Part shown: positions 1,410-63,535 of the stretch, one piece after another
How the letters are laid out: each line of letters starts with the position of its first letter
Numbering within the stretch: position 1 is the stretch's first letter
NCBI GenBank assembly: GCA_964580585.1
Contig: CAZOKZ010000001.1
Location: 23,261 to 87,260, forward strand
Reading direction: 5' to 3'
Origin: an uncultured Candidatus Sumerlaeota bacterium
Lineage (GTDB): Bacteria > Sumerlaeota > Sumerlaeia > SLMS01 > JAHLLQ01
Length of the DNA: 64,000 bases
Position numbers and translations under genes: made by a program
Notes under the pieces: model-generated
Database searches by the model: none
The model's input: only the letters and a program-made list of their open reading frames with translations
Told to the model about the DNA's origin: nothing

Positions 1410-1440
1410 GAGGGACGGAGTAACTTGTCTTCGTCCCTCG
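1410..1440. terminator. Inverted repeat (GAGGGACGGAG ... CTTCGTCCCTC) between convergent gluQ and trpG; putative bidirectional terminator built from the recurrent GGGACGGAG motif.
   Basis: Hairpin read directly from the sequence between convergent gene ends. Confidence 0.4.
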
Positions 1441-1467
1441 AATCCTCTTCGCCATCGACGAGCAATA

Positions 1468-2043
1468 TCACACGGCATATAAATCGAGGAAGTTTTTCAG
1501 CAGTTGTTTCCCCTCGGTTGTCAGAATCGACTCGGGATGGAATTGAACCCCGTGGATGGGATAGGTTTTGTGACGCAGGCCCATGATGGTGCCGTCGTCT
1601 TCGGCATAGGCGCAAATTTCCACGTCGTCGCCAAGTGAATCGCGTTCAACGACGAGCGAGTGATAACGGGTTGCTGTAAAGGGGTTCGATAGGTTCTCAA
1701 AGACACCTGTATTATTATGACGAATTTGACTGGTTTTGCCATGCATCAAACGCGGCGCGCGGATCACGTTTCCGCCAAAAACCTGGCCGATACACTGGTG
1801 TCCCAAACAAACGCCCAACGTGGGGATTGTTTGCGAGTACTTCGTCAGGATTTCCAGCGATTGCCCCGCGTCGTCCGGCGTACCCGGACCGGGCGAGATC
1901 ACAATGTGCGTCGGATTGAGAAGCTCGATCGTATTCACGTCGAGTTTATCGTTCCGAATGACATGCAACGTTTCACCCAGTTCGCCAAGATACTGAACCA
2001 GGTTGTATGTAAATGAATCGTAGTTGTCGATTACCAGAATCAT
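1468..2043 (-). CDS. trpG: Glutamine amidotransferase class I; anthranilate / aminodeoxychorismate synthase component II.
   Basis: LGVCLGHQ catalytic Cys motif; HGVQFHPE; 191 aa. Confidence 0.8.
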   Translation of the reverse strand: MILVIDNYDSFTYNLVQYLGELGETLHVIRNDKLDVNTIELLNPTHIVISPGPGTPDDAGQSLEILTKYSQTIPTLGVCLGHQCIGQVFGGNVIRAPRLMHGKTSQIRHNNTGVFENLSNPFTATRYHSLVVERDSLGDDVEICAYAEDDGTIMGLRHKTYPIHGVQFHPESILTTEGKQLLKNFLDLYAV

Positions 2044-2056
2044 CGTGTTTTTTCCG

Positions 2057-2899
2057 TCAAGAAAGCGAGTTTTTTTCCGAGTCCAGAAGTTGCTGACGCA
2101 ATTGCCAACGTTTCAACAATGTCTCGACAAATTTATCGTCGGGATTCCCTGATTGCAATTCGCCAAGGCATTCCTGCAACAGATCTATCTGGTGTTGCGA
2201 GGGGTTTTTTATCTCGACCAGACAATCGGCTAGCAAATAATCCAATCCCCGGTTGGATTGCACACGGCGAGCTTTGCCTAACGACGAAACGGCGTCGGCG
2301 AACGCTTGTTGATCGGCAAGACGATGGGCCACGGCACGTTTGACCATACCACGATAAAAGAGGAAGAAGTACGCCTCGCGGTCGGATTCCGGTTCCGCGA
2401 TGGAATCGAATTGTTCGTTTGCACGATCCCAATCTTTCGGGTCCTGGGATATCCGGGCAATCGCCGTCAGAACAATGGCGGCTTCGCGTTTGTATGTTTC
2501 GGCCAACGTTGGGTCGTCATTCTGGGCGAGTTCCAACGCAAGCGCCAATGCTTCTTCTAAACGTGGCTGATCGTTGTTCTGCGTCCCCAGTACAAAAAGA
2601 CACGTGAAAAGCCGTTCCCCATGAAGAGGACGTTGATCGGGGTCTAATTCCAATGCGCGACGATAATGACGTTCGGCCGATTCGTATAAATCCAGACCCG
2701 GCGCTTTGTCTTCCGCGTTGCGCTCCAGATACGTGCGTTCCCACACGAGGCCCGCCAGGTGTTGGACGATGGGATCGTCAGGGAACTCGCTATCCACATT
2801 TTGTATGGCAGAGATGGCCTTGTCGAATTCCCTCATGCCCAACATGGTTTGGACATAGTGTGCAAGTTCTTCGGCGGAGGAAAACGGGGTGTCAGCCAT
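2057..2899 (-). CDS. TPR-like repeat protein, hypothetical.
   Basis: ORF of 280 aa with a helical-repeat character; no specific family recognised. Confidence 0.45.
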   Translation of the reverse strand: MADTPFSSAEELAHYVQTMLGMREFDKAISAIQNVDSEFPDDPIVQHLAGLVWERTYLERNAEDKAPGLDLYESAERHYRRALELDPDQRPLHGERLFTCLFVLGTQNNDQPRLEEALALALELAQNDDPTLAETYKREAAIVLTAIARISQDPKDWDRANEQFDSIAEPESDREAYFFLFYRGMVKRAVAHRLADQQAFADAVSSLGKARRVQSNRGLDYLLADCLVEIKNPSQHQIDLLQECLGELQSGNPDDKFVETLLKRWQLRQQLLDSEKNSLS

Positions 2900-2924
2900 G
2901 GAATCGTATCCAGCGGAAAAAGGA

Positions 2925-2957
2925 AAAGGGACGGAGATAACTTATCTCCGTCCCTTT
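2925..2957 (-). terminator. Near-perfect 16-bp hairpin (AAAGGGACGGAGATAA / CTTATCTCCGTCCCTTT) downstream of nusA, flanked on the minus strand by a T-rich tract.
   Basis: Palindrome read in sequence; the T-run follows on the nusA strand. Confidence 0.5.
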
Positions 2958-2963
2958 GATGTG

Positions 2964-4454
2964 TTATGCCTTGTCTTGGGGGACTTCTTCCTCAGAAGGT
3001 TCGGCTTCTGTGGACGCTGCCGATTCAGACGCCTCTGTTTCTTCGGCATCCTCGGGAGTTTCCACCGTTACCTTGCCTGCCAGGCGATCGGCAAGTGCCG
3101 AAGCCGCCTTCAAGCGCTGACGTACGTCTTCGGTGATGCCAGCTTCGGAATCCTTGGTCATCTGTTGCAGGTTTTCCAAGTATTCCTTGGCGCCATCGAC
3201 GATGTCTTCTGCCAATTCCTGATCGTCGCCCGTAAAGCTGAGCAATTGCTGCGCGTCTGCTTCTGCCAGTTTTTCCACGCTGTTGAAGTCTTCCGTGCGG
3301 GTGAGAGCTTCGGCGGCGAATGCCGTCAAACCATCGATCTGGTTCAGGAAGTCGTTGAGGTACTGGAGAGAGATTGTCTCGAGACGTGCCATTTCGGCTT
3401 CGTCTTCCTGCTCGGTCACGTCAATTTTCCAACCGGTCAACTTCGCGGCCAGTTTTGCGTTTTGTCCGCGCTTGCCAATGGCTTTGGCGAGCGAGTCGTG
3501 TTCAACAACCACATGAGCGCGTTTTTCGATTTCGTTCAACTTGATCGAAACGATCTTCGCGGGGTTCAGGGCCGATGAAATAAACGATTCGGGAATCACC
3601 GAGTACGGCACGATATCGACTTTTTCGTTGTCGAGTTCACGCACGATCATCTGAACGCGCGAGCCTTTCATACCGACGCACGCACCGACGGGATCGACGT
3701 CCGGGTTCATGCTGTTGACGGCGATCTTGGTCCGAACGCCTGGCTCACGGGCAATTTCAACGATGCGAACGGTGGCGTCGCTGATTTCCGGTACTTCGGT
3801 GGCGAACAGTTGTTTCACCAGTTCAGAGCGCGTACGTGACAAAATGACCTGCGGGCCTTTTGGCGTGCGGCGAACATCGATGATCAAGCAGCGGATACGG
3901 TCGCCATAGCGATAACGCACACCGAAGGGAATTTCCTGGTTGGGGAGCAGGCATTCGACCTTGCCGAGTGCGACGATTGCGTCGCGACGTTCGTAACGTT
4001 GGACGATGCCCGTAACGACCGAGCCAACTTTGTCTTTATAATCGGTGTAAATACGATCGCGTTCGGCATCGCGCAGGCGTTGGAGAATGCCCTGGCGTAC
4101 GGATTGGGCGGCAATGCGGCCAAATTCTTCGGGATCGATTTCGACTTCGATTTCATCGTCGAGCATGTGCTGGGGGTTACGGGCTTTTGCGGCCAGAATG
4201 TCGATCTCCGTGCGGGGATCGTTCACCGAAACGACAACGCGTTTCTTGACATAAATGCGCATGTCGCCGGTTTCTAAATCCAGGTCGGGGCGTGGGAAAT
4301 GAAAGACCTGGGCGCGTTTGCTGGCCGCCGAGAGGATCGCCATTTCCACAGCATGTTTGATTACATCAGGTTCAAGGTCCTTTTCCTTCGAGATCATCTT
4401 GATCAGCGGTTTGACGTTCAGGGCCTTGATTTCGTTTTTTTTCTTCTTCGCCAC
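2964..4454 (-). CDS. nusA: Transcription termination/antitermination factor NusA with a long acidic C-terminal tail.
   Basis: N-terminal, S1 and KH region similarity to NusA; likely GTG start at 4454 preceded by GGAG; the ORF track extends to 4628. Confidence 0.85.
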   Translation of the reverse strand: MAKKKKNEIKALNVKPLIKMISKEKDLEPDVIKHAVEMAILSAASKRAQVFHFPRPDLDLETGDMRIYVKKRVVVSVNDPRTEIDILAAKARNPQHMLDDEIEVEIDPEEFGRIAAQSVRQGILQRLRDAERDRIYTDYKDKVGSVVTGIVQRYERRDAIVALGKVECLLPNQEIPFGVRYRYGDRIRCLIIDVRRTPKGPQVILSRTRSELVKQLFATEVPEISDATVRIVEIAREPGVRTKIAVNSMNPDVDPVGACVGMKGSRVQMIVRELDNEKVDIVPYSVIPESFISSALNPAKIVSIKLNEIEKRAHVVVEHDSLAKAIGKRGQNAKLAAKLTGWKIDVTEQEDEAEMARLETISLQYLNDFLNQIDGLTAFAAEALTRTEDFNSVEKLAEADAQQLLSFTGDDQELAEDIVDGAKEYLENLQQMTKDSEAGITEDVRQRLKAASALADRLAGKVTVETPEDAEETEASESAASTEAEPSEEEVPQDKA

Positions 4455-4624
4455 GGTTTTTTCTCCGCACGTTGGTATGAAGGGTGAAAACAGAAACGGG
4501 CCGCCTTTCGAGGCCGCCCGTCCGTTAGCACTCTTATTTGTAGGCAAAAGTTGTTCCACCGTGGCTGGAGAAGACAAGAGAAATGTTTTAAGGAGAGCGA
4601 AGAAAGGAAGAACGCCGTAACGCG

Positions 4625-5833
4625 TCACTCATTCGGCAGCTTATCCCGTAAGACTTTCCAGGCCAGATTAAGTCGTTTCGCTTTGGCTTCAGCCATTTTG
4701 CGGAAGTCTTCATCGTCGTGGAACTTGTCGGGATGGTAGCGCATTTGCATTTTACGGAAAATTTTCTGCGCGTATTCAAGTGTTGTATTTTCCGTCAGCG
4801 CGAACAACTCCAGCGCTTCCTCGAAGGAAATTTTATCTTCGACTCTCAGTTTTTCTTCAGAGGCTCCATTGTCTTCACGGGGCTCTTCTTCCTCGGGCTC
4901 ATCCGCTTTGGGGGGCGCTTTCGGGCGAGTTTCCCAACCGCCCATGGGATGAGCCTGGATTTTAGGGGCCAGGTCGTTGCGCAGCATTTCTTCGACATCG
5001 ATGACAGAAAGCGGGCGACCCATGCCTTCGAGCGCTTCACAAATATGACGTGTTGTTGGGGGCTCGAACGCACGTTCGATGAATTCCAAAATATAGCGAC
5101 CCAGGAAATTTCGCAAATGCGGATCGTCCAGGTACTGATCCGGCTTTGTGTTGGCGTCCACGGCGCCGTAATCCGCGGGCTCTGTGTCCCCATCGCCCAG
5201 CATGCGAGCAAATCGTCCGGCGGTCGCGCGCATCTGGCTGTAAATGGCCTGATAGGAGTGAAGCGACCCCGCTTGGATTGGAGGAATATCCATGTCGGAT
5301 TTCTTGCGGCCAAATCCCACGGCATCATTGAAAACAACAACTTTGCCTTTGTGTGGCGGTCCCACCATTTTTTTGGCGGAATCGGCAATTTCATGCGTCA
5401 TGCAGAGGATCAAATTTGCCCAGCGAATTTGAGGAGCCAGTAAGGGCTTGCTGCGATGCCCTTTCAGGCTAACCCGGTGTTCGTAGAGGAATTTGGCGAA
5501 TTCGCGCTCGGGTGGCGTGGGCACTTGCACGTCGATTCCGGCACTATCGAAGGACGTATCGAAGACGTTGAACTCCTTGGCAAAGTTCTGCGTCATCGCC
5601 CGAGCCATAGGCCCGCGGAACAGATCGTGATTGCTGAGAAAAAGGACATGCATTTTTATTGTGCGGTCGTTGCGATGCGTTTGAAAGTCTCGAATACGAT
5701 GAGACCAGTCTTGCCACGAGCCAATCAAATTATTGAGAATTCTTGGGCGAATTTTCACGAGACTCCTCAACCCGGGATTCTTCACAGGCTGTTCCATGAA
5801 AGACGGAATTGTACGGATCGTTCTTAAGCGCAT
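4625..5833 (-). CDS. Fusion protein with a low-molecular-weight PTP/ArsC-like domain (Ser replaces the CX5R cysteine: SNHDLFRGP) and a C-terminal J domain (HPD motif).
   Basis: VLFLSNHDLFRGPMA resembles the LMW-PTP P-loop with C to S; C-terminus YAQKIFRKMQMRYHPDKF ... KAKRLNLAWKVL is a J domain. The start is uncertain: it could be the internal Met at 5653. Confidence 0.55.
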   Translation of the reverse strand: MRLRTIRTIPSFMEQPVKNPGLRSLVKIRPRILNNLIGSWQDWSHRIRDFQTHRNDRTIKMHVLFLSNHDLFRGPMARAMTQNFAKEFNVFDTSFDSAGIDVQVPTPPEREFAKFLYEHRVSLKGHRSKPLLAPQIRWANLILCMTHEIADSAKKMVGPPHKGKVVVFNDAVGFGRKKSDMDIPPIQAGSLHSYQAIYSQMRATAGRFARMLGDGDTEPADYGAVDANTKPDQYLDDPHLRNFLGRYILEFIERAFEPPTTRHICEALEGMGRPLSVIDVEEMLRNDLAPKIQAHPMGGWETRPKAPPKADEPEEEEPREDNGASEEKLRVEDKISFEEALELFALTENTTLEYAQKIFRKMQMRYHPDKFHDDEDFRKMAEAKAKRLNLAWKVLRDKLPNE

Positions 5834-9762: not shown

Positions 9763-10773
9763 ATGATACCCAATAATAAATTTTTCATTCTATTTGTTGC
9801 TCTCTTCCATTTTGTTTTGGGTGTGCACGTTGCGAATGCCGAAACCAACTCGTCGGATGCATCATCCACGGCAACGCTTTCCTCCGTCCCCATAAAACCA
9901 AATCCACTGCGCATCGGATTTTTACGTCCGGAAGGCGAAACGGATTTAACCGAAGAAAGCATGGAGGGGTTGCGCAAAGCGTTGCTTGCCGACAATGCCC
10001 TCCAACAAGCGGCTACGCGCGCATATGATGCTCGTGGGATTGGCCTGTATGAAATTGATGGAGGGACGGAGATGCTCAGTCGGCTGAACGCGCGTGAATT
10101 GGATGTCGCGTTTGTACCGAGTCGCATCTGGGCCGAGCAATCCGCCGGATACACGGTGATTTTACAAACGCGAAGAAAACGCGACTTTACCGCCACGCGC
10201 GGGCGAATGGTCTGGCAACGTGGTGTGGTTTTTGTCAGTTCGCGCAGTCCGTTTTTCGATTCGGAAACGATCGATTCTTCTGACTTCGCAACCTATCTTG
10301 GCGAACAACGTATCGCCGTTGTTTCGTCGAAGAGCATGGCTGGTTATGTAGCGCCATTGCTGGCGCTTTCCGATGAATACAACCGTTCATATCCGGCGGC
10401 GGATTTGCTTTGGTGTGAATCCAGTGCCGAAGTCACTAAAGCCGTTATTTCCGGGCTTGCCGATGTGGGGACATGCGAAGAAGGCGCGATGATCGAAACG
10501 TTGAATGCGTCCGGAATCAGCGACCGTCAGCAGGAATTCACTCGCGTGATCCTCCGTTCCAGCCCTGTGCCCACCGATCCCGTTGTGGTGCACCCGGACT
10601 TGGCGCCGTCTCGATCGGAACTGGGGCGCGAACTGAAACGTGTATTGCGTTCGTATTCACTCGAAACGGGATTTGGAACAATGTCGCTTCAAGATGCACA
10701 GGACAGCGACTACGAGGAAACCCGGGCGCTTCTGCGCCGATTCGACGATCGACTGGGGAAATCCTTGCGATGA
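9763..10773 (+). CDS. Periplasmic substrate-binding-fold protein (PhnD/SsuA-like type 2 PBP), probable sensor partner of the downstream kinase.
   Basis: Signal peptide MIPNNKFFILFVALFHFVLGVHVANA; PBP-like fold by pattern; its stop overlaps the HK start. Confidence 0.45.
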   Translation: MIPNNKFFILFVALFHFVLGVHVANAETNSSDASSTATLSSVPIKPNPLRIGFLRPEGETDLTEESMEGLRKALLADNALQQAATRAYDARGIGLYEIDGGTEMLSRLNARELDVAFVPSRIWAEQSAGYTVILQTRRKRDFTATRGRMVWQRGVVFVSSRSPFFDSETIDSSDFATYLGEQRIAVVSSKSMAGYVAPLLALSDEYNRSYPAADLLWCESSAEVTKAVISGLADVGTCEEGAMIETLNASGISDRQQEFTRVILRSSPVPTDPVVVHPDLAPSRSELGRELKRVLRSYSLETGFGTMSLQDAQDSDYEETRALLRRFDDRLGKSLR

Positions 10774-12023
10774 CGTCTCCGTCCCCTTCGCGCACGCCGG
10801 CATTGTGGCCGCTGATACTTGCGCTGGTGTTTACCGTCGCCGCGCTCGTTATATTGTTTTGGCTACGTGGACGCGTCGTGAAAGAGGAGAAAGCCTTCCT
10901 TGCCTATTCTGTGCGACTCTTTGAATTGTCGGATGCCCTGCGCCGACCGGAAAACGACTCGGTGCGGTTCTCTCAGATCGAGTCCATCGCACGTAGTATC
11001 GAAGAACGCGATTTGATCGCCCATTTGCTCGTGAGTAAAAATACACAACAACGCCAAGAAGTGTTGCTTTACCCGTATTATTACGATCTCGCACATCCAA
11101 ACTGGAGCAATGAGATTTCCCAATATCAACGATTGACCATTGGTGAGGAAAACACTCCTCGCGGGTGGATTTACGTGCGCCTGAATCCCGCCAATCGCCA
11201 AGCCATCGACCGCGTTATTCTGGCATTCAGCGCCTTGATGGTTTTTTGTCTCGGCGCATTGATTTTCCGCCAACGCGGCAAAGAAACTGAGCTACATCGC
11301 ACAGTTTCAGAACTTGAGCAACGTCGGGCGGAAGTCATCCGACTCGAACGGCTGGCGTTGGCCGGACAACTCTCCGCCAATATTTTTCACGATATCAAAA
11401 AACCGGTTCTGAACATCAAGCACGAGGTCACCGACGCGCTCGATATGGGCCATTCCAGCGAGGAAACCCTTCGGGCGGTACATGAACAAACCGAGTTGTT
11501 TTTGAAAATGTTGCGCGAATTGGGTTTTGAACAATTCGTGCGCGCAGAAACCGAAGAAGGCGAATATTGCGATGTACCAGAAATGGTCGAACGTGCATTG
11601 TCCCTGGTGAAGTATGAACGCGGCGATGTGGAGATTGAAATTGATGTGCCAAACGATGGTTCGTTGCCGTTGATATTTGCTTCGCCGCATCGCCTGATTC
11701 AGTTATTTTCCAACCTGATTTTAAATGCTTACCAGGCAATGGATGGCAAAGGAGTCCTGCGGATTCGCGCAACATTGGAAGACAAAAACATCGCTCTTCA
11801 ATTCGATGACAATGGCCCGGGCATCGATCCTGAACTGCGCGAAACGTTGTTCGATCCATTTGTCACGACAAAAAGCCACTCCGAAGGTTCTGGCCTTGGT
11901 TTATACATTTGCGCGAAAATCGCTGCCGATTTGCACGGCGAACTGGTTCTGACGAATTCATCCTTCGAGCAAGGAACTGGATTCAAGATTGTGCTTCCCG
12001 GGTTGCAACCAGAGTCCATATGA
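10770..12023 (+). CDS. Sensor histidine kinase (TM helix, HisKA and HATPase_c domains).
   Basis: H-box LALAGQLSANIFHDIKKP; N, G1, G2 boxes (DDNGPGID, GSGLGL); ATGA overlap with the upstream gene. Confidence 0.8.
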   Translation: MTSPSPSRTPALWPLILALVFTVAALVILFWLRGRVVKEEKAFLAYSVRLFELSDALRRPENDSVRFSQIESIARSIEERDLIAHLLVSKNTQQRQEVLLYPYYYDLAHPNWSNEISQYQRLTIGEENTPRGWIYVRLNPANRQAIDRVILAFSALMVFCLGALIFRQRGKETELHRTVSELEQRRAEVIRLERLALAGQLSANIFHDIKKPVLNIKHEVTDALDMGHSSEETLRAVHEQTELFLKMLRELGFEQFVRAETEEGEYCDVPEMVERALSLVKYERGDVEIEIDVPNDGSLPLIFASPHRLIQLFSNLILNAYQAMDGKGVLRIRATLEDKNIALQFDDNGPGIDPELRETLFDPFVTTKSHSEGSGLGLYICAKIAADLHGELVLTNSSFEQGTGFKIVLPGLQPESI

Positions 12024-12074
12024 AGTTACCTTGAAAGAGTGGGATTTTGGATCCAATTCTGGTGGTTGGTTAAC

Positions 12075-15005: not shown

Positions 15006-15034
15006 CCTCTACACAGTACCCGATAAAAACGAAT

Positions 15035-15070
15035 CCGCCTCGCAATTATCTTGCGAGGCGGAAGTTTTTT
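15035..15070. terminator. Bidirectional rho-independent terminator (CCGCCTCGCAA-TTATC-TTGCGAGGCGG followed by TTTTTT, with an A-run upstream) between the convergent helicase gene and zapA.
   Basis: Perfect 11-bp stem plus U-tract, read from sequence. Confidence 0.6.
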
Positions 15071-24166: not shown

Positions 24167-24192
24167 GGGACGGAAGAATGTACCACCGTCCC
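24167..24192. terminator. Hairpin GGGACGG-(12 nt)-CCGTCCC between convergent ftsY and ruvA.
   Basis: 7-bp stem built from the recurrent motif; no clean U-tract. Confidence 0.3.
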
Positions 24193-24868: not shown

Positions 24869-25105
24869 GAGCGAGGTATCCTGTTGGGGCGAAAGTCAGA
24901 CGAAAGCACCGTCCAAAACCATGCCGAATGGCGTCAAGACACTTTGACGCCGTCGGGTGGATGAATTATTTAAAGATGAAAGGAACATCTGCGACCAACG
25001 TGGCTTCGATGTTTTTCAGAAAAAAAATCCATCTCCTGCAATTTTATTCCGCCGGTGCACTTGTGTCTGGTGAAGGAGCAATTTTCACGGAAGGACAGAC
25101 GAAGG

Positions 25106-37499: not shown

Positions 37500-37520
37500 G
37501 AACCATCGAAACCATTTACA

Positions 37521-37558
37521 AAAAACGCGTCTCGGTATATCCGAGGCGCGTTTTTTTT
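37521..37558. terminator. Bidirectional rho-independent terminator (AACGCGTCTCGG-TATAT-CCGAGGCGCGTT with a T8 run, A-run upstream).
   Basis: Read from sequence between convergent genes. Confidence 0.6.
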
Positions 37559-37563
37559 GAAAC

Positions 37564-52166: not shown

Positions 52167-52176
52167 GGAGAACAAG

Positions 52177-53400: not shown

Positions 53401-54132
53401 ATGACACTTGAAAATAAAGTCGTTTGGATTACAGGTTCCGCGCGACGCGTCGGCAAAACCATCGCAATCGAAGCCGCACGCGAAGGCGCCGATATCGTCG
53501 TGCATTGCAATCGTTCTCGAAATGAAGCCGAAACGACCGCTTCTGAAATTCGAGCTATCGGCTCCAAAGCCCTTGTCGTTCAAGGCGATCATGCACAGCG
53601 GGCCGATGTGGAACGCATAATAAACGAAATCGATTCGCACTTTGGACGACTCGACGCATTGGTCAATTCCGCTTCAACATTTCCAACCAAGCCATTTACC
53701 GAAATTTCCACCGAGGAATTTTCATCGACCATCGATGCGAATTTGCGTGGGCCTTTTTTGTGCGCACAACTTGCGCTCCCTCTTCTTCGCGCAGCAAAAC
53801 CCGGGCGAATTGTCAACATCACCGACTGTATGTTGCCTCGTCCCTATCCGAAATACGCTGTCTATTGGTGTGCGAAAGGCGGACTTGATGCTTTGACTCG
53901 CGCACTGGCGAGGGAACTGGCCCCGGACGTGCTCGTAAACGCAGTCGCACCGGGCCCCGTGCTCGCGCCCGATGATATCACGGAACAAAAACGTGAAAAT
54001 ACCATTGCACGAACGTACCTCAAACGGTGGGGGAAACCCGAAGACGTGGCGTGTGCAGTAATCTATTTATTGAAGGCGGAATATACGACTGGTATCTCCG
54101 TCCCCGTAGATGGGGGACGGAGTCTTGGTTAG
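53401..54132 (+). CDS. Short-chain dehydrogenase/reductase (pteridine reductase/FolM-like).
   Basis: TGSARRVG cofactor motif; YxxxK (YWCAKGG). Confidence 0.8.
   Translation: MTLENKVVWITGSARRVGKTIAIEAAREGADIVVHCNRSRNEAETTASEIRAIGSKALVVQGDHAQRADVERIINEIDSHFGRLDALVNSASTFPTKPFTEISTEEFSSTIDANLRGPFLCAQLALPLLRAAKPGRIVNITDCMLPRPYPKYAVYWCAKGGLDALTRALARELAPDVLVNAVAPGPVLAPDDITEQKRENTIARTYLKRWGKPEDVACAVIYLLKAEYTTGISVPVDGGRSLG
54095..54122. terminator. 10-bp inverted repeat CTCCGTCCCC-GTAGATG-GGGGACGGAG overlapping the 3' ends of two convergent, overlapping genes.
   Basis: Read from sequence; built from two copies of the recurrent motif. Confidence 0.4.
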
Positions 54133-55373
54133 CGTCTTTGCGGGCAATCGCCCATCATGGGCAGCTCGATGATAAACGTTGTCCCCTGAGATTCCTCAGT
54201 TTCAAAAAATATCTCACCATGGTGTTCATCGATAATTTTTTTCGTCACGGCGAGCCCAATACCCGTTCCCCCTTTGCCTTTGGTCGAATAGAAAAGGTTG
54301 AACATTTTTTGCTGAACCTCGGGTGGAATTCCATCGCCATCGTCGCTGATGCGAATCCGGATCAAACGCGCACCGCAATCCAGTTCACTTGACACACGCA
54401 CTTCGCCTTCTCGACCTGCAGGAATCGCATCCAATGCGTTGCCCGCCAAGTTGAGCAAAGCATCGAACATCGCGCTTTCATCCATCATCACAGGCGGAAC
54501 GCGATGATCCAGATTAACGACAAAATGAATATTTCGTCGGAACGCAGTGTCCTCGATTTCATGTGCTAATCGAGCGATCAACGCATTCAAATCGCCTTGT
54601 TCCAATGCGCAACGATTCTCGCGTGAGAACACGAGCATGTTTTCGACCAATGCGCGGATTTTTTCCGTGCTGCGCGCCAGCAATTCCCACCCTTGGCGAA
54701 TTTTCCCCACATCGTTGCGCTTAATTCCCGCCTCGACGAAATACGAACCGCCCATCATATTTTGCAAAACGTTCTTGATGTAATGTGCCACTTCACTCAG
54801 TGAAATTGCGATCGCCGCCAACCGTTCGGCTTCGACTTTCTCGTTATAAAGGCGGGCTTTTTCGAGCACGATGGCAATTTGTTTGGCGAGAATTTCGCCA
54901 AACACAATTTCTTCGTCTCTCCATTCATGTGGGTTGCGGCGTCGCATCGAAAGAACGCCGACAACTTCGTCTTGGATACGTAACGGCGTACACAAATAGG
55001 CCAGATATTCGCGCGCTTCCGAACTTGCAGGTTCCGGAAAATCGCGTTCGTCGTTCGACGTGTCGTTTACCGCCAACGTTTGATTTTGCAGTGCGGCCCA
55101 GCCAGCCAGGCCTTCACCCAACCGAAATCCCTGGCGCCCAAGTTCCTCGGCGCGACTCCGTCCCTGCGAAGCTTTTAATACAAGAAAGTCTCCGTCCCCG
55201 CCTTCCTTTAAATAAACAGAGAAAGTGTCTGTTTCCATCACGCGAGCGCCAATTTCACAAATACGCAACACTATCGCATCGATGGTCATTACCGAGCCAA
55301 CGGCATAACTGATCTCAAGCAGTGCTTCGGCAATCCGGCGATCATGACCAAGCGCGGAAACGGGTGAAGACAT
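54129..55373 (-). CDS. GAF-domain sensor histidine kinase, cytoplasmic.
   Basis: GAF N-terminus; H-box EVAHYIKNVLQ; HATPase N/G boxes. Confidence 0.8.
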   Translation of the reverse strand: MSSPVSALGHDRRIAEALLEISYAVGSVMTIDAIVLRICEIGARVMETDTFSVYLKEGGDGDFLVLKASQGRSRAEELGRQGFRLGEGLAGWAALQNQTLAVNDTSNDERDFPEPASSEAREYLAYLCTPLRIQDEVVGVLSMRRRNPHEWRDEEIVFGEILAKQIAIVLEKARLYNEKVEAERLAAIAISLSEVAHYIKNVLQNMMGGSYFVEAGIKRNDVGKIRQGWELLARSTEKIRALVENMLVFSRENRCALEQGDLNALIARLAHEIEDTAFRRNIHFVVNLDHRVPPVMMDESAMFDALLNLAGNALDAIPAGREGEVRVSSELDCGARLIRIRISDDGDGIPPEVQQKMFNLFYSTKGKGGTGIGLAVTKKIIDEHHGEIFFETEESQGTTFIIELPMMGDCPQRR

Positions 55374-55442: not shown

Positions 55443-57692
55443 TCAGAAGTCCGCCTTCAAAACGGCGCCCTTCGCAGCGTTAGTCACCAAGCGACTGTAT
55501 CGTTTCAACCAGCCCTTGGTCACGCGTTGGGGATTGGGAGTCCAATTTTTCCGTCGTTCGGCAAGTTCATCATCGGACACCAGCAACTCGATTTTTTTAT
55601 CATAGATATCGATCGCAATCTTGTCTCCGTTCTGCACCAGACCAATCGTTCCGCCCTCGGCGGCTTCCGGCGAAACGTGACCAATGCATGCACCGCGCGT
55701 CCCACCCGAGAAACGCCCATCGGTAACGAGCGCCACTTGACTGCCGAGGCCACGCCCCATGATGTAACTTGTCGGTGCCAACATCTCCTGCATACCCGGG
55801 CCGCCTTTGGGGCCTTCGTACCGAATGATCACCACATGCCCCGCATCGACTTCCCCCGCCAGAATGCCCTCGCACGCGGCTTCCTGCGATTCATAGACAA
55901 TCGCCGCACCGGTAAATTTCTTCATATTCTCTTCAACGCCCGCCGACTTGACCACGCAACCCTCTGGCGCGAGATTTCCGTACAGAATATTCAAACCACC
56001 CTGTTTTGAATATGCCTTTGGCACCGTCCGAATACAATCGTACGGATCGAACTTGGCGGGTTTGACGGGATAGGTTCCACCGAGTTCGGAAACCGAGCGC
56101 GTCTTCGTCGCCTTTACCATGCCGTCGCCTTCGTGGAACGTCGCTTTTGCAATGGTGGCTCCGTCGTCGGCGAGGCCATCGAACACGAGCACGCCAACGG
56201 GGGACGGAGTCTTTCCACGTTCCCACAAAACCGCAACGGACTCGCCGTCCAGGTCAGCCACACACGCCGCCGTGCCTTGATCGCCGCGATGCAGCCATCC
56301 GTCGATGAATTGGCTGAGCGAAGCGCCCGAAACCGTTGCATCTGTTGTAAATTGGGCACGAACCGCTGCTGAATTTTGCGCATTCCAAGCGGCTGCAAAT
56401 GCCGCCGCCAGCGCCTCGGTTGTTGCCGTCTTAACCAACGTTGTCACGCCACCGGGGATATCTGAACGTGCTCCAGCCCCCTGCATCTTGCCAAGCGCGG
56501 TGTGCAGTTCGCGCACGGACTTGCCTGTCGGCACTGCACCCGACTGGTTCAGCACCAACGCCTCGCGCGCAACCTTCGCGCCGCGAATATCCCAGGCATC
56601 GATATTTTCACCGAGCGTTTTCCCCGTCACCGTCAACACGTTTTCGTTCAACACGCCCGGCATGCCTCGACGAATTTCGCCGAGAATTGTATGAATACCG
56701 CCCGCGTGATGCACGTCTTCGATGTGGTAAGCCGACGAAGGCGAAACCTTGCTGATGTTGGGCGTCGAAGCGGAAATTTCGTTCAGGTCTTTCATCGTGA
56801 AATCGACTTCGGCTTCGCTCGCCACCGCCATCGTATGCAGCACCGTATTTGTCGAGCCACCCATCGCCACATCGAGCACCATCGCATTGTGGAACGCCTC
56901 GCGTGTGGCGATGTCGCGTGGTTTGATGTCCTTATCCACGAGTTCCAGGATCTGGCGCGCAGCACGGCGATACAGCTCAATGCGTGATTCGCTCGTGGCA
57001 AGCACCGTTCCGTTGCCGGGCAGCGCCAGACCCAATGCTTCATTCAAGCAGTTCATCGAGTTTGCCGTGAACATCCCACTGCATGAACCACACGTTGGGC
57101 AGGCAAAATCTTCTAGTGTTTTTAGCTGCGCATCGTCGATTTTACCGATTTTGCGCGCACCGACACCTTCGAATACCGAAATCAAATCCACTGTTTTGCC
57201 GTCCGGCGTTACACCTGCTTCCATCGGGCCACCGCTGACAAAAAGCGTTGGAATATTCAACCGCATCGTGGCCATCATCATGCCCGGCACGATCTTGTCG
57301 CAGTTCGGAATGCAAATCATTCCGTCGAAACAATGAGCCTCGACCACGCTTTCCACGCAGTCTGCGATCAATTCGCGACTCGGCAGGCTGTACTTCATGC
57401 CAAAGTGCCCCATCGCGATGCCGTCATCGACACCAATGGTATTGAACAAGAACGGAACGCCACCCGCTTCGCGAACGGCTTGTTTGACAAACTGGCCGAC
57501 CGCGTCCAGATGTGCGTGACCCGGAATAATGTCAATGTAACTGCACGCAATGGCGATAAACGGCTTGTTTTCGTCGCCATCGACAAAGTTACCCGTGGCC
57601 TTGAGCAGCGAACGATGCGGCGCGCGCTCGAAGCCTTTCTTAACGGTATCCGACCGCATTGCGCGTGGTTTGCCGTTTCCTTGTTCCGTCAT
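55443..57692 (-). CDS. ilvD: Dihydroxy-acid dehydratase with an inserted domain of about 140 aa (NTF2/SnoaL-like) in the C-terminal half.
   Basis: ILVD_EDD signatures (CDKIVPG, SGGTRG, Cys ligands); 749 aa against typical lengths of 560-620; insertion between HTILGEI and AYSKQGGL. Confidence 0.85.
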
Positions 57693-60032: not shown

Positions 60033-60331
60033 TTTGCTCCATTTTCCCCAATTTGAATGAGTGTGGTGGGGGATATCATACAGTTTGGCGGTTTAAAATT
60101 ATACTTGCAAAGAAAAAACCTGATTTTCTGCTTGCTCCATATAGGATATATGATACATGTTTTATCCGAATTATGTCGATTGAGGCGAAAAAAGCTGATT
60201 TATCGGATTGATTTGCAGCACAGGCAGCATTACAAAGCCGCCGCATTTGGCGGGAGTTCTCAAAAAACCGAGGCTCGAAAGTTCTAAGGTTCGAAACTCC
60301 ACCCCCCCCGACGGAAACGTGACGCTAAATC

Positions 60332-61615
60332 ATGAATTCGAACTGTTTAGGCCTAAGTCACCGCACTGCCCCCCTTGAACTCCTCGAACAGGCGGGCATT
60401 AATAGCGAATCGATGGTGCCCGTTTTAGAACGCATTCGTCGCGATTCGCCCATCGAGGAAATCGCGGGTCTTTCGACATGCAACCGTACCGAAATTTACT
60501 ACGTCGCTCCGCCTGACTGGACCGGAGCCCGCGAACACGTTCTGAATCGGATGTACGAGCATATCGCGCATGATACCCGCCATGAAATTAACTCACATGC
60601 CTACCAACATACCAGTCAATCGGCTGCGCGCCACTTGCTGCGTCTTGCCTCGGGTGCCGATTCTCTGATTCTGGGCGAGACGGAAATCCTTGGACAAATC
60701 CAAAACGCCTTCCGGCTGGCCGATGAGAACGGCTTTGTCGGCGAGACTCTGCGTGCATTGCTCACACGTTCGGTGGCATTTGGACGTCGCGTGCGGGTGG
60801 AAACCGACATTTGCAAAGGCCATGTGTCGTTTGCTTCGGTGTCGTACGATATCGCGAACGAAGTTTTTGACGATATTTCCAACCGCTGCGTCGTGATTGT
60901 CGGCGCCGGGGAAATCGCCCGAGTAACAGCCCAACACTACTGGTCGCGTGGTGTGGGATCGATGATGATCCTGAACCGCACATTCGAAAAAGCACGCGAA
61001 TTGGCTGCAACTTTTCATGCCACCGCAATGCCTTTCGATCACTTGAACATCGCCCTGGCAAAAGCGGACATCGTTGTTTACGCCACGGGCGCCCAGGAAT
61101 ACCTGATGACCCGCGACGAAGCGGTGCATCTGATGAAAGCGCGTCGAACGACTGTCCCGAAGGTATTTATCGACCTTTGCCGTCCCCGCAACATCGATCC
61201 AGCCGTTGCCGAAGTCCAAGGCATTCGCCTTGCCGCAATGAATGAAATCAAACAAGCCGTTGAAAGCGCCAGTCGCACGCGCGAAGCCGCCCTTCCGGAC
61301 ATTGAATCGCTCGTTGACGTTGAGATTGCCAAGCTGACCGATTGGCTGCATTCGCGCCAGGCATCGAAACTCGTCACCGCCGTTCGCCGCCGGATGGACG
61401 ACATCTGCCAAAGTCATGTGAACCGCTATGGCAAGCAATTCGACGAGCGCCATCGTGCATGTTTGTCTAAGTTTTCACAAAGTCTGCTCAACACTCTGAT
61501 GCACGACATCACGATGAACATTCGCCAGTTGGATATGGATACGGATATCGGAAAACAAGAATTCGATCTTGCCTGCCAACTTTTCAACATCACTCAAGGC
61601 GAACTGGACACCTGA
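60332..61615 (+). CDS. hemA: Glutamyl-tRNA reductase.
   Basis: LSTCNRTEIY active-site motif; NAD-binding GAGE. Confidence 0.9.
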   Translation: MNSNCLGLSHRTAPLELLEQAGINSESMVPVLERIRRDSPIEEIAGLSTCNRTEIYYVAPPDWTGAREHVLNRMYEHIAHDTRHEINSHAYQHTSQSAARHLLRLASGADSLILGETEILGQIQNAFRLADENGFVGETLRALLTRSVAFGRRVRVETDICKGHVSFASVSYDIANEVFDDISNRCVVIVGAGEIARVTAQHYWSRGVGSMMILNRTFEKARELAATFHATAMPFDHLNIALAKADIVVYATGAQEYLMTRDEAVHLMKARRTTVPKVFIDLCRPRNIDPAVAEVQGIRLAAMNEIKQAVESASRTREAALPDIESLVDVEIAKLTDWLHSRQASKLVTAVRRRMDDICQSHVNRYGKQFDERHRACLSKFSQSLLNTLMHDITMNIRQLDMDTDIGKQEFDLACQLFNITQGELDT

Positions 61616-61780
61616 TGGTGTAAGAATTCCGTTTCGTTCCGAATCTCTGTCTTGCGCTTCCGTCTCAAGCTTCCGTAACGTAGCCCTGTTACGCCTTAGT
61701 CTTGAGTACTTTCGGCGCTTTTTTTGTCGGGTTCGATTCTCCTTCTCCCGACTGTAACTTCCTTTAGGATTTCCCGACGA

Positions 61781-63535
61781 ATGACGCCCCCGCCAGAACT
61801 CATAAAACTGCGGATTGGGACACGTGGCAGCCGTCTCGCGCTCGCGCAAACCACTCACGTCGCCGAAACGTTGCGTGAGCAGTTTCCCGAAATCGACATT
61901 GAAGTCGTTATTATTCAAACTACCGGCGACAAAATCCTCGATTCTTCTCTATCGAAAATCGGGGGCAAAGGGGTGTTCACCAAAGAAATCGAAGACGCCC
62001 TACTCGACGGTCGAATCGATGTCGCTGTCCACAGCCTCAAAGATCTGCCGACAATCCAACCCAAAGGCCTGTGCCTTGGTGCGATCAGCAAACGCGAGTC
62101 GCCGTTCGATGTATTGATTGCACGCGAACCGCTTGAGATTTCCGCCCTGGGTGCGGAGCATCTTGTTGGCACCTCCAGTCTTCGTCGCCGCGCACAGTTA
62201 CTTCGCCTTAATCCGAACATCGTCATCAACGACTTGCGCGGCAACGTGCCAACCCGTGTTCAACGAATGATCGACGGACAATACACCGCCATTATTCTTG
62301 CTGAAGCCGGTATGAATCGTCTTTCGCAATCAGCGCCATACATTCAACGATTTTCAGCAGAGCAAATGCTCCCAGCCCCCGCGCAAGGCGCTCTTGGCCT
62401 GCAATGTCGCGAAGGCGACGACGCAACGCTCGCCGTGCTGGCGACGTTTCACGACGAGCCAACTGCCGCGTGCTGCAACGCCGAACGCGCACTGCTCCAG
62501 GGTCTCGGCGGAGGATGCCAATTGCCGCTTGGGACGTTGGCGGAAATCACCACCGACGGGAAACTGAAATTGCGCGGATGCGTGGTATCTCTTGCCGGGG
62601 TCCGTTGTATCCAAGACATGGTCGAAGGAGATTGCAACGACCCCGTAGCGTTGGGGCGCGCATTGGCCGAGCGATTGCTCGCCAAAGGAGCGGATGAAAT
62701 TTTGCATGAACTCGGCGTCGATAGTTCCAACACCGGATTCGACGACGCCGTGGCACGCAGCAACGCTCTCGACCGACGTCCTCTCGGTGGACGCAAGGTT
62801 ATCGTCACGCGCGATGAAGACGCCGATGGACCACTGAGCACTGCGATTCGCGATGCGGGCGGCCATCCCGTCTGCTTGCCGCTGATCAAGCACGCTCCGC
62901 CCGAAAACCCTGCTCCGTTAGCCGAAGCTGTCGCACGCATCGACGAATACGATTGGGTCGTCTTCACCAGCGCACGGGGTGTCGAATCGCTTGCTCGACC
63001 ACTCAAAGGCCTCCGTCCCCGCATTGCCTGCGTGGGCAAGGCAACCGCGCGCGCCGTTGAAAAAGCCGGAGGCACCGTAGATTTCGTATCACCGCATTCC
63101 ATGGCTGCCGGGTTGATCGGCGCATTTCAGACGATGACGGATATCGCCGGAAAACGAGTGTTTTACCCACGTGTCGATATTGCGTCCGAGCATTTCAAGG
63201 AAGCGCTGGAAGCAATGGGTGTCGAAGTGGACGACGTGATCGCCTATCGTACGGTTCAAACCGGCGCTCTCGACAGCGTCGTAAACGCTCTTCGTTACGA
63301 TAAACCTCTCGCCATCACGTTTTGCAGCGCGTCCTCCGTCGAGCCCATCGCCAAGTTGATTGCCAATAATAATCGCACCATGTTCGATGATGTGATTATC
63401 GCATCGATTGGTCCTTCAACATCCACGGCTTTATGCGAAGTCAATCTTGCCCCTCACGTTGAAGCAAGCGAACGGTCTTTCAATGGACTTGTCGATGCGC
63501 TTGTTGAACACGTTAAAACTTCTCCGTCCCCATGA
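61781..63535 (+). CDS. hemCD: Fusion of porphobilinogen deaminase (N-terminal) and uroporphyrinogen-III synthase (C-terminal).
   Basis: HemC motifs (RIGTRGS.LA..Q, dipyrromethane Cys region) followed by a HemD-like domain of about 250 aa in one ORF. Confidence 0.85.

Follow-up and report, generated by a model that had tools for sequence, protein, structure and literature searches.

Why should one short DNA word recur every few kilobases in a bacterial chromosome, within genes as well as at their ends? This question is raised by the 9-mer CTCCGTCCC/GGGACGGAG in the stretch of DNA analysed here, a 64-kb window from an uncultivated Candidatus Sumerlaeota bacterium with 52% GC. The window holds 22 exact copies, about 50 times the chance number, while dinucleotide shuffles give an expectation of 0.43 and a Markov-3 model one of 0.32. 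The original prediction of some 20 copies where about one is expected is thus borne out. In an unbiased k-mer scan of the window the word was the top outlier for k = 8 to 11. The 10-mer CTCCGTCCCC is enriched ~190-fold, the 11-mer TCTCCGTCCCC was observed 6 times against 0.03 expected, and the over-representation of the 9-11-nt forms ranges from 70- to 190-fold. An enrichment of ~190-fold lies within the range of the known uptake sequences USS and DUS and far above that of Chi or KOPS sites. The 9-mer recurs once per 2.9 kb and its 8-mer core once per 2.3 kb, and the copies are clustered along the window (dispersion index 2.6, p = 0.002). Positions given earlier were correct to within 0-11 nt; some starts had to be moved (for instance 10788 to 10777, 44798 to 44788 and 45468 to 45458) and four copies were added (at 1197, 20267, 28717 and 52308). 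The over-representation of the word is a real and interesting signal.

The full motif, D-W-Y-TCCGTCCC-Y, or R-GGGACGGA-R in its G-rich form, has 28 copies in the window; GGGGACGGAGA is one written form of the word. Since TCCGTCCC is preceded by C (22 copies) or T (6 copies) and never by A or G, and since TTCCGTCCC is enriched, the first motif position is Y. TTCCGTCCC is the sole enriched one-mismatch form of the 9-mer in the window and is located on the plus strand at 31158-31166, 43044-43052 and 47792-47800 and on the minus strand at 40738-40746 and 44521-44529. Perfect 9-mers (22) outnumber one-mismatch copies (15, with ~13 expected by chance). The motif is therefore sharply defined; it is non-palindromic, carries ~18 bits and is conserved over 9-11 nt only.

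Copies within genes

Most copies (19 of 22, 86%) are intragenic, and all six frame and orientation classes are occupied. The peptides SPSP, SVP, GDGD and GTE, which had been named as evidence against a codon effect, were all found again, and LRP, GRS and RDGA occur besides, so that every class is used. When synonymous codons were resampled with the proteins held fixed, 0.59 copies were expected (at most 3 in 300 trials), and codon permutation gave 0.42, compared to 18 observed in coding sequence. The claim that conservation acts on the DNA, and not through codon or peptide bias, is strongly supported by these results.

The single copies are spread over many unrelated genes. GluQRS carries one on the minus strand (1197-1205, RDGA), a DUF58 gene one on the minus strand (20267-20275, GTE) and miaA two on the plus strand (28323-28331, DSVP; 28717-28725, LRP). 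In the gene for a PhnD-like substrate-binding protein there is one copy on each strand (9882-9890, plus, SVP; 10063-10071, minus, GTE), and a third (10777-10785, plus) follows its stop codon (10773) by 4 nt; this one is probably intergenic, upstream of the true start of a histidine kinase gene. Two minus-strand copies lie in an 857-aa spermidine-synthase-like gene (44788-44796, GTE; 45458-45466, GDGD, 107 nt before the stop), and three on the plus strand in the hypothetical gene 52168-53400 (52308-52316, SVP; 53021-53029, SPSP; 53364-53372, SVP, 28 nt before the stop). Two on the plus strand (55156-55164, GRS; 55190-55198, GDGD) are contained in the minus-strand gene of the GAF histidine kinase. 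The copy in ilvD (56201-56209, minus, TPSP) falls within a ~190-aa lineage-specific insertion, and the hemC-hemD fusion gene has two on the plus strand (63011-63019, LRP; 63522-63530, SPSP, 5 nt before its stop codon). No internal copies were found in the genome-maintenance genes of the window (radC, ruvA, xseA, a DEAD-box helicase gene and nusA), which are a small sample.

How such copies came about can be read from the proteins. In GluQRS, MiaA and the SDR protein they fall within conserved blocks free of gaps and hence arose by point substitution, not by insertion. In GluQRS the copy at 1197 gives KRDGADD where orthologues have KRSGDDD or KRAGDED, and in MiaA the copy at 28323 gives DSVPH, aligned without gaps to DGVPH of PDB 2qgn. 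Point substitution has also been reported as the origin of USS (PMC1939737).

No significant strand polarity, whether relative to replication or to transcription, was detected for the copies in the window. The 9-mer occurs 13 times on the plus and 9 times on the minus strand, and the sense-strand form of the intragenic copies is C-rich in 11 cases and G-rich in 8. The GC skew switches at ~30 kb; 17 of 28 core copies are co-oriented with this switch (p ~0.17), and among the 22 exact copies the presumed leading strand carries the G-rich form in 15. Such a slight skew is expected from composition alone, as the word has 7 G and 1 C. A general orientation bias is likewise not observed for uptake sequences (PMC2346458).

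Paired copies and gene ends

Four inverted pairs are situated at gene ends, and in three of them the stem is followed by a U-run; these three are canonical intrinsic terminators. According to the original prediction such pairs mark convergent gene ends exactly. All four were found in place and three are convergent, whereas the pair at 2925-2957 separates co-directional genes. Exact 9-mers in both arms are present only in this pair and in that at 54096-54122.

The pair at 1410-1440 lies between the stops of the convergent genes GluQRS (1402) and trpG/pabA (1468). Its arms are GGGACGGAG (1412-1420) and CTTCGTCCC (1429-1437), one of them mismatched, and as RNA they fold into a hairpin with 11 bp in its stem (dG -20.6 on the plus and -16.9 on the minus strand). 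As the U-run AUUAUUUUU follows the stem on the minus strand, this pair is an intrinsic terminator for trpG. Directly 3' of nusA, the perfect pair AAAGGGACGGAGATAA / TTATCTCCGTCCCTTT (2925-2957), flanked by an A-run and a T-run, forms a 15-bp stem (dG -25.7 / -27.5; z -5.4 / -5.9) after which the nusA strand reads UUUUCCUUUUU; an independent assembly (L001) has this hairpin as well. The imperfect pair at 24167-24192 (GGGACGGAA / CACCGTCCC, two 7-nt arms) stands between the stops of convergent ftsY (24105) and ruvA (24248), with a 7-bp stem and then UUUUAUUUUU on the ruvA strand. The fourth pair, CTCCGTCCCC-N7-GGGGACGGAG at 54096-54122, is located within the last 12 codons of an SDR gene, whose end is convergent and overlaps with that of the GAF histidine kinase gene. 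It encodes ISVPVDGGRS within the C-terminal block that is conserved in SDR proteins (tgqtihVNGG in the aligned 3osu), and its 10-bp stem (dG -24.6 / -21.5) has no U-run.

Enrichment at 3' gene ends, which had been proposed as a check, was confirmed: 8 of 22 copies lie at most 40 nt from a stop codon compared to 1.4 expected, and 6 of 20 compared to 1.8 when each pair is counted once (p = 0.007). At the same time, 14 of 22 copies are more than 100 nt away from any stop codon, and the 17 unpaired copies have hairpin partners no better than those of random 9-mers. The single word, not the pair, is the unit.

Can the word then be the favoured stem of the terminators or RNA hairpins of this organism, with the singles as decayed or incipient half-sites? 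The four gene-end hairpins, three with U-runs, and the enrichment at 3' ends speak for it. However, a stem does not need a fixed sequence, other terminators in the window (15034-15062 and 37515-37561) have unrelated stems, most copies are unpaired, and most are remote from stop codons. We hold this explanation to be very unlikely; the lack of above-random partners for the 17 unpaired copies largely refutes it.

Occurrence in other genomes

Among the eleven sampled Sumerlaeota genomes, the word is present in two, that of the window and L002. The latter, whose NusA is 79% identical and whose GC content is 65% compared to 52%, contains the word 5 times in 21.5 kb where 0.42 copies are expected, in three frames and four genes, and the extension ACTCCGTCCC was observed 5 times against 0.05 expected. 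Across 150 kb from the nine other genomes a single copy was counted. One of the nine is L005, which of the sampled relatives that offer enough sequence (21 kb in its case) is the closest to the window; another is L128, close to L002 and syntenic with it. Such a patchy distribution is atypical of uptake sequences, as DUS and USS dialects are normally common to a genus or family. A region-specific signal is possible, since the sequence from L002, like the window, comes from the surroundings of nusA, and since the window adjoins the GC-skew switch.

Outside the phylum, the 10-mer CTCCGTCCCC forms intergenic, REP-like clusters in Pseudohongiella (L086, L122), a Clostridia MAG, a 'Verrucomicrobiota' MAG and some viral contigs. 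Composition-matched control words gave equal or more cross-taxon hairpin matches, so the repeats in unrelated phyla and phages are background for a database of such size. These clusters would be the argument for assigning the word to a mobile REP-, REPIN- or MITE-like element; a repeated peptide motif may be considered together with it. Against the element stand, apart from the control words, the conservation of only 9-11 nt in the window and the intragenic position of 86% of the copies, which with their ungapped conserved blocks implies that nothing was inserted. Against the peptide motif stands the use of all frames in many unrelated genes: a true peptide-driven word, TCAGGGCGG in L005, is confined to one gene and one frame, unlike the word of the window. 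Frame usage, ungapped blocks and synonymous resampling refute both for the window, and we give them almost no credence.

Relation to known sequence systems

The closest parallels are found in DNA uptake sequences. The DUS of Neisseriaceae (AT-GCCGTCTGAA with its dialects), which the minor pilin ComP recognises, is likewise a sharp, non-palindromic word of 10-12 nt, over-represented more than 100-fold, with few mismatched copies. Its copies show no preference for one strand, occupy gene ends as well as every frame within genes and, as inverted pairs, form intrinsic terminators. The Sumerlaeota word differs in its unrelated sequence (CCGTC alone is common to both) and phylum, in a ~3-fold lower density, in its larger intragenic share (86% in the window) and in its presence in 2 of 11 sampled related genomes instead of the whole clade. 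Uptake words of Neisseria and Haemophilus reach ~1 per kb, two to three times the density in the window.

The USS of Pasteurellaceae (Hin-type AAGTGCGGT, Apl-type ACAAGCGGT) share with our word a 9-nt core with weakly informative flanks, a mostly intragenic position reached by point substitution in pre-existing sequence, a bias to gene termini and the use of paired copies as terminators. Perfect and one-mismatch copies occur in similar proportions, 1.5:1 in the window and 1.9:1 in H. influenzae (1471 and 764 copies; PMC1939737). In contrast to the USS, the word is rich in GC and is not flanked by AT-rich segments in helical phase; its density is lower, its phylogenetic distribution patchy and its host uncultivated. 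Unlike both DUS and USS, it showed no bias to genome-maintenance genes in the window.

With the polar signals Chi (RecBCD/AddAB) and KOPS/SRS (FtsK/SpoIIIE) the word has in common that it is short, G-rich and over-represented in the chromosome, lies within genes and is present at ~1 per 3-5 kb, but it exceeds them in length and, by one to two orders of magnitude, in enrichment; it also lacks significant replication polarity and often stands in inverted pairs. The cyanobacterial HIP1 (GCGATCGC) is also a very abundant short word, kept up at the DNA level in all frames and patchy among relatives, with a function likewise unproven. HIP1 is, however, a palindrome with a cognate methyltransferase, while the Sumerlaeota word is asymmetric and has no linked modification enzyme. 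REP/REPIN sequences, mobilised by RAYT, resemble it in their inverted pairs at gene ends; they differ in being extragenic, conserved over 20-35 nt and spread by transposition, as opposed to 9-11 nt, 86% intragenic copies and an origin by substitution.

Competing explanations

Three further explanations take the word as a signal within the cell. It may, as the original prediction also proposed, be the binding site of an abundant chromosomal protein (for example a nucleoid-organising, SMC-loading, occlusion or macrodomain factor), kept by selection for binding and not by uptake bias. A sharp, non-palindromic motif of ~18 bits fits the footprint of one protein, gain or loss of that protein would fit the patchiness, and the clustering (dispersion index 2.6), the adjacent GC-skew switch and the shared nusA neighbourhood of L002 would agree with a domain-specific site. 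We nevertheless regard such a site as unlikely. The density in the window corresponds to ~1000 copies per 3-Mb genome, 86% of them in genes, whereas the known sites of this kind (parS, matS, SBS and NBS) are in most cases palindromes, run to some tens in a genome and tend to leave genes intact; frequent pairing as a terminator is left without explanation, and the proposal comes without a named candidate protein.

Quite improbable, in our view, is a Chi-like or KOPS-like polar signal, abundant because it protects or orients the chromosome; the Chi-like form had been listed in the original prediction as an alternative. The word is G-rich, as are KOPS and several Chi sites, and its density resembles that of E. 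coli Chi (~1 per 4.5 kb). Chi in E. coli is ~75% co-oriented, and at such numbers our counts of 15/22 exact and 17/28 core copies are indistinguishable from this value. Yet the polarity is non-significant and far below that of KOPS, the skew is explained by composition, and inverted pairs at terminators are foreign to polar signals. Known Chi and KOPS sites have 5-8 nt and a few-fold over-representation, which disfavours the assignment of a word of 9-11 nt with 70-190-fold enrichment. We give equally little weight to a sequence-specific bias of repair or gene conversion acting in the cell without DNA uptake, similar to very-short-patch repair or the upkeep of HIP1. It would explain the same footprints (origin by substitution, use of all frames, lack of polarity, few mismatches), a mobile repair or modification module would fit the patchiness, and an orphan-looking N6/N4 DNA methyltransferase is encoded at 21920-22735. 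Nothing, however, connects this enzyme with the word, HIP1 and the targets of Vsr are short palindromes, and a repair or methylation system whose target is a contiguous, non-palindromic stretch of 9-11 bases is not known to us.

A candidate uptake sequence

By analogy, we favour the reading that D-W-Y-TCCGTCCC-Y enhances the uptake of DNA in the manner of DUS and USS, at a probability of roughly 40%. The likeness that had been predicted held in all sequence-level tests run (enrichment, no polarity, substitution, few mismatches, terminator pairs, gene-end bias); it did not extend to the sampled relatives, most of which are without the word. In such a system, a receptor for DNA on the cell surface, in all probability a component of the type IV pilus machinery, would prefer word-bearing DNA, and the fragments taken up would replace homologous chromosomal DNA. 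Biased uptake together with ordinary point mutations could then, by molecular drive, gradually write in the word wherever its cost is low, at synonymous or conservative sites of genes, whatever the frame or strand, and at gene ends. Two copies inverted beside a T-run would give a stable hairpin and so an intrinsic, often bidirectional, terminator, a role that would be secondary, as it is in Haemophilus and Neisseria.

The competence genes comEA, comEC and pilQ, for which a search had been suggested, are absent from the 64-kb window, as are dprA and pilin or prepilin genes. Of the components of type IV pili or type II secretion, the window encodes a single one, a PilC-like T2SSF platform protein (41659-42888, plus strand; PF00482, E = 6.6e-65), and this gene provides context only. 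For all Sumerlaeota MAGs, Fang et al. (2021, PMC8092238) report genes of type IV pili, machinery that the proposed uptake would require.

We infer that uptake bias is the driving force behind the word, that a receptor for it exists and that the organism carrying it is naturally transformable. If the word is an uptake sequence, it would be the first such candidate outside the Proteobacteria. By its likeness to DUS and USS, it may represent a candidate third uptake-sequence system with a putative function in DNA uptake.

Abundance and sequence of the word

The 9-mer CTCCGTCCC/GGGACGGAG, whose C-rich and G-rich forms are the two orientations of one word (word-bearing sequence, GGGGACGGAGA), has 22 copies in the window of 64 kb. 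The expectation is 0.43 copies from dinucleotide-preserving shuffles, none of 100 shuffles containing more than 3, and 0.32 under a third-order Markov model. The original prediction, made from the sequence alone, had counted roughly 20 copies; its coordinates are right within a few bases and the positions that it listed stand, but four copies (1197, 20267, 28717 and 52308) had been missed. The 11-mer TCTCCGTCCCC is present six times in the window against 0.03 expected and the 10-mer form is enriched about 190-fold, the over-representation at lengths of 9-11 nt ranging from 70- to 190-fold. When the k-mers of the window were all scanned without bias, the word together with its sub-words and super-words gave the top outliers at each k from 7 to 11, and no other k-mer came near its rank.

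Perfect copies (22) are more frequent than one-mismatch copies (15, about 13 of them expected by chance). The number of one-mismatch variants, 15 beyond the exact copies with a shuffled total of 13.5, is close to chance level with the single exception of TTCCGTCCC, which has six copies; therefore the invariant core is TCCGTCCC, found 28 times in the window. This core is preceded by C in 22 and by T in six cases, never by a purine; the base after it is C in 14, T in 10, A in two and G in two cases. A weak preference for W and not-C exists two and three bases upstream and none farther out. The information content is about 18 bits, spread over 11-12 positions, with conservation confined to approximately 11 nt. 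Since CTCCGTCCC differs from its own reverse complement, the word is non-palindromic. Over the 64 kb there is one 9-mer per 2.9 kb and one core per 2.3 kb. The copies form clusters along the window (dispersion index 2.6, p = 0.002).

The densest cluster comprises eight copies between 52.3 and 56.2 kb and includes a hypothetical gene (52168-53400) which contains three of them and for whose product LIM-type zinc fingers and a metallopeptidase fold are only weakly indicated. The copy at 56201 falls in an unusual part of ilvD (55443-57692). The encoded protein of 749 aa carries an insertion of about 190 aa (56019-56600, minus strand) between its N- and C-terminal domains, where the linker in solved dihydroxy-acid dehydratases has about 18 aa. 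No Pfam family matched this insertion, for which there is at most a weak SnoaL-like hint.

Copies within genes

The word lies within genes in 19 of 22 cases, spread over 11 unrelated genes, and every one of the six strand and frame classes is represented. Where the C-rich form is the sense strand, the word encodes LRP (2), SPSP or TPSP (4) and SVP (5), and where the G-rich form is, GTE (3), GDGD or RDGA (3) and GRS (2). When the proteins were kept fixed and synonymous codons were redrawn from the window's own codon usage, 0.59 copies were expected in coding sequence, with a maximum of 3 in 300 trials, compared to 18 observed. Permutation of synonymous codons within each gene let 0.91 copies be expected, and codon permutation 0.42. 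The word is therefore written via synonymous codon choice. The view that conservation acts on the DNA and not through codon bias, originally based on unrelated peptides in different frames (SPSP, SVP, GDGD, GTE), is thus confirmed, and LRP, TPSP, RDGA and GRS can be added to these peptides. Codon or peptide bias as the cause is ruled out by the six frame classes and the resampling with fixed proteins, and a peptide effect is refuted for the window.

Alignments of GluQRS, MiaA and an SDR protein run through the copies without gaps. The copy in GluQRS encodes KRDGADD, facing KRSGDDD and KRAGDED in two Sumerlaeota orthologues, and one of the MiaA copies encodes DSVPH where a solved MiaA has DGVPH. 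The inverted pair at 54096-54122 sits in the conserved C-terminus of the SDR protein (ISVPVDGG facing tihVNGG). A three-residue insertion was looked for at the copies in the GAF-kinase and none was seen. From these ungapped blocks it follows that the copies originated by point substitution at permissive sites and not by insertion, which rules out a 9-bp block insertion or a mobile footprint. An origin by point substitution has likewise been reported for the uptake signal sequences, USS (PMC1939737). REP, REPIN and MITE elements are extragenic, spread by insertion and share 20 nt or more of conserved sequence, whereas here 19 of 22 copies are intragenic, conservation covers about 11 nt and the alignments are ungapped; a mobile element of this kind is refuted for the window.

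Copies at gene ends

Four pairs of copies form inverted repeats, located at 1410-1440 (11-bp stem, dG -20.6 and -16.9 kcal/mol), 2925-2957 (perfect 16-nt arms, dG -25.7 and -27.5 kcal/mol), 24167-24192 (7-bp stem) and 54096-54122 (10-bp stem, dG -24.6 and -21.5 kcal/mol). In the first three, a U-run comes after the stem on the strand that carries the upstream gene, trpG, nusA and ruvA respectively, and these pairs are predicted to be canonical intrinsic terminators. The pair at 54096-54122 has no U-run, and the one at 2925-2957 was flagged as bidirectional by the terminator scan. The original prediction placed the pairs exactly at convergent gene ends. This applies to three of them, but the pair at 2925-2957 lies between nusA and a co-directional downstream neighbour.

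An enrichment at 3′ gene ends was observed, with 8 of 22 copies not more than 40 nt away from a stop codon (1.4 expected) and, if pairs are counted once, 6 of 20 (1.8 expected, p = 0.007). On the other hand, 14 copies are more than 100 nt away from every stop codon. For the 17 unpaired copies, complementary partners within 45 nt are no better than those of random 9-mers. This rules out hidden hairpins around single copies and indicates that the unit is the word itself and not the hairpin. With 17 unpaired copies and 14 far from stop codons, a pure role as terminator stem is refuted for the window. Strong bidirectional terminator-like hairpins with stems unrelated to the motif were detected at 15034-15062 and 37515-37561; the organism is therefore not dependent on the word for termination. 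Neither a tRNA nor a match to an Rfam family was found in the window, and a known RNA family was consequently rejected as an explanation.

Orientation and genomic context

There are 13 copies on the plus and nine on the minus strand; relative to transcription, the sense strand carries the C-rich form in 11 and the G-rich form in eight cases. The GC skew changes its sign at about 28-30 kb of the window and the cumulative G-C peaks at about 30 kb, which suggests a replication terminus or origin within the window. A search at this switch with the general dif consensus found no dif-like site. The G-rich form is on the presumed leading strand in 17 of 28 core copies, which is not significant, and in 15 of 22 exact copies with a boundary at 28 kb. 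The direction of this lean is the one that composition predicts, since the word contains seven G and a single C. Co-orientation with replication is about 75% for Chi and more than 85% for KOPS. The 61-68% observed here are, at n = 22-28, indistinguishable from 50% and from 75%, and a skew at the level of KOPS is excluded. Thus, significant polarity was found neither by strand, nor by transcription, nor by skew.

The host belongs to Candidatus Sumerlaeota (formerly BRC1), as indicated by NusA and other proteins, and the window is an ordinary housekeeping region with genes such as gluQ, trpG, nusA, cdaA, radC, ftsY, ruvA, miaA, ubiX, ubiE, prfA/B, tolB, smpB, xseA, ilvD, hemA and hemCD. Transformation machinery is represented in the window by a pilC-like gene only, and no comEA, comEC, dprA or prepilin genes were found there; a type IV pilus, which an uptake system would require, has been reported in all Sumerlaeota MAGs (PMC8092238). 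The genes radC, ruvA and xseA, a DEAD-box helicase gene and nusA, a very small sample, contain no internal copy of the word.

In the window, a fusion of a low-molecular-weight phosphotyrosine phosphatase and a DnaJ J-domain (4625-5833) is conserved beside nusA and recurs in three comparison loci from other Sumerlaeota genomes (L002 7544-8659, L005 6704-7726 and L128 7749-8807). Three architectures are unusual, namely a HemC-HemD fusion of 603 aa (61724-63535), an ECF-type sigma factor of 619 aa extended C-terminally by about 400 aa (25055-26914) and a RadC/JAB protein of 502 aa extended N-terminally by about 280 aa (12039-13547). An N6/N4 DNA methyltransferase gene (PF01555, 21920-22735) has no obvious restriction partner adjoining it, and a homologue is also located near nusA in a distant relative (L007).

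Occurrence in other genomes

The region around nusA was sampled in ten further Sumerlaeota genomes. In locus L002 (NusA 79% identical; 65% GC compared to 52% here), five copies were detected in 21.5 kb against 0.42 expected, distributed over four genes and three frames, and all five have the extension ACTCCGTCCC (0.05 expected). As no copy position is common to L002 and the window, the copies accumulated independently. The nine other genomes together contain one copy in 150 kb. The assembly of L002 derives from SRR23823798, and the relatives without the word include GCA_028284075.1, GCA_020444065.1, GCA_964269675.1, GCA_964437365.1, GCA_054681655.1 and JGI 3300045912 Ga0484959_000893. Among these word-poor relatives, L005 (21 kb sampled) is closer to the window than L002, with 84% core NusA identity; L130, only 4.2 kb long, is equally close, and L128 is a close, syntenic relative of L002 (86%). 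Therefore the word was kept across a large shift in GC content and is patchy in the phylum. A metagenome scan with NusA returned two loci, both distant.

An alternative dialect of the word was not found in the sampled relatives. In L005, TCAGGGCGG/CAGGGCGG was counted seven times against 0.3 expected, and 8 of 11 copies lie in one FG-GAP gene, always in frame 0. It was rejected as a dialect because it encodes the FG-GAP protein repeat in one frame; its copies in this gene (2821-4553) were used, as negative control, to show what a word driven by its peptide looks like. In the 21-kb locus L003 (GCA_964269675.1), 11 homopolymers of C or G with 9 nt or more (0.6 expected) and seven copies of GTATAGAC (0.27 expected) were counted, possibly lineage-specific words or phase-variable tracts.

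GTDB species genomes were scanned for the paired word. Among the matches listed, most were isolated hairpins, and the 10-mer was locally dense in four Pseudohongiella species and in one MAG each of 28%-GC Clostridia, 'Verrucomicrobiota' and Blastochloridaceae. Some viral contigs also carry arrays of the 10-mer. The dense copies elsewhere are intergenic, clustered and REP-like or iteron-like, whereas those of the window and L002 are dispersed and intragenic, and the cross-phylum loci are unrelated to the window. In the viral scan, the real word gave 48 matches, compared with 51, 97 and at least 120 for three control hairpin words of matched composition, the controls also producing repeated matches on single viral contigs. 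The recurrence across phyla is therefore regarded as look-elsewhere background of a very large database. For these reasons, a horizontally moving DNA-binding protein shared across phyla was rejected.

Some of these repeats are described here in their own right. In the Clostridia MAG RGIG9027 (25-28% GC), twelve tandem copies of TCTCCGTCCCCRAAAT with a 16-nt period are found upstream of ftsZ, in the interval that separates it from an ABC transporter gene (L096 288-480), two inverted copies being located at one end. The GC-richness of the array contrasts with the very AT-rich genome, and another contig carries a second, smaller array (L042 7874-7930). In the four Pseudohongiella species (L086, L100, L122, L118, L110, L097), direct and inverted repeats form REP-like clusters between genes; the repeats have an invariant core CTCCGTCCCC, variable flanks and loops and reach 18 copies in 8 kb. 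One such cluster flanks a vapBC-like toxin-antitoxin pair. An IMG/VR viral contig (L138 13497-13690) has an iteron-like array in which ACTCCGTCCC is repeated 11 times within about 180 bp, and a further array comprises four to five copies of the 22-nt unit GTTGCTCCGTCCCCCCCAG (L181 956-1051).

Discussion

The signal is real. Neither composition nor codon usage explains the word, and the same holds for protein repeats and for mobile DNA. On comparison with known systems, we propose, as the best-supported reading, that it may be a DNA uptake-enhancing sequence in Sumerlaeota, the paired copies of which would have been co-opted as terminators; we give this reading a probability of roughly 40%.

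The original prediction that the word behaves like the uptake sequences of Neisseria (DUS) and Pasteurellaceae (USS) stands in most points. Common features are a roughly hundred-fold excess of copies in the window, a sharply defined, asymmetric word of 9-12 nt and inverted pairs as terminators, which are predicted ones in our case. As in those systems, both orientations occur without polarity, a general orientation bias being absent from uptake sequences, and gene termini are favoured (PMC2346458). Intragenic copies in all frames, arisen by substitution, and the rarity of mismatched copies relative to perfect ones also correspond (PMC1939737). However, the word is missing from the interior of the few genome-maintenance genes in the window, it is patchy among relatives, where a DUS or USS, or a dialect of it, is common to a clade of related species, and its copies are clustered. 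The enrichment of DUS and USS in genome-maintenance genes is a statistical tendency and not a strict requirement. Uptake sequences of Neisseria and Haemophilus occur about once per kb, and the density found here is two to three times lower.

Other roles of a chromosomal word have to be considered. The Chi-like signal that had originally been offered as an alternative, and likewise a KOPS-like one, are disfavoured, since known Chi and KOPS words have 5-8 nt and are few-fold over-represented, whereas the present word has 9-11 nt, is over-represented 70-190-fold and is without significant polarity. Both positive loci, the window and L002, sample the same neighbourhood near the skew switch, which is in keeping with a binding site of an abundant chromosomal protein, a possibility that we regard as unlikely. 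The same footprints would also be expected if repair or conversion within the cell were biased, in the manner of HIP1. However, HIP1-type words are palindromic, unlike the word described here, and we know of no repair or conversion system with such long, asymmetric specificity, so that this explanation appears very improbable.

To our knowledge, sequence-specific DNA uptake is known from two proteobacterial families only, and the sources treat it as a peculiarity of these. In the literature searched, the word is not described in bacteria, the matches being plant Stowaway/mariner inverted repeats and primers; likewise, no uptake sequence in Sumerlaeota and no link between Sumerlaeota and competence were reported. 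If the word enhances uptake, it might represent a third, independently evolved uptake-sequence system and the first outside Proteobacteria, with a specificity determinant that moved between non-sister lineages; this extended claim is tentative and seems rather doubtful to us. Such a determinant might be a DNA-binding minor pilin, and its movement would explain an identical word in genomes of 52% and 65% GC and none in nearer relatives.

A third, unrelated case would mean that self-preferring transformation evolves repeatedly and that natural competence can be predicted in organisms not yet grown. The receptor would then be a concrete target, namely a DNA-binding surface protein that both genomes with the word have in common and that their relatives without it lack. 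Gain and loss of uptake words could also be studied by means of the patchy distribution, for which the long-established DUS and USS give no opportunity. Even without a role in uptake, a word of 9-11 nt imposed via synonymous codons points to a strong sequence-specific force acting on the genome.
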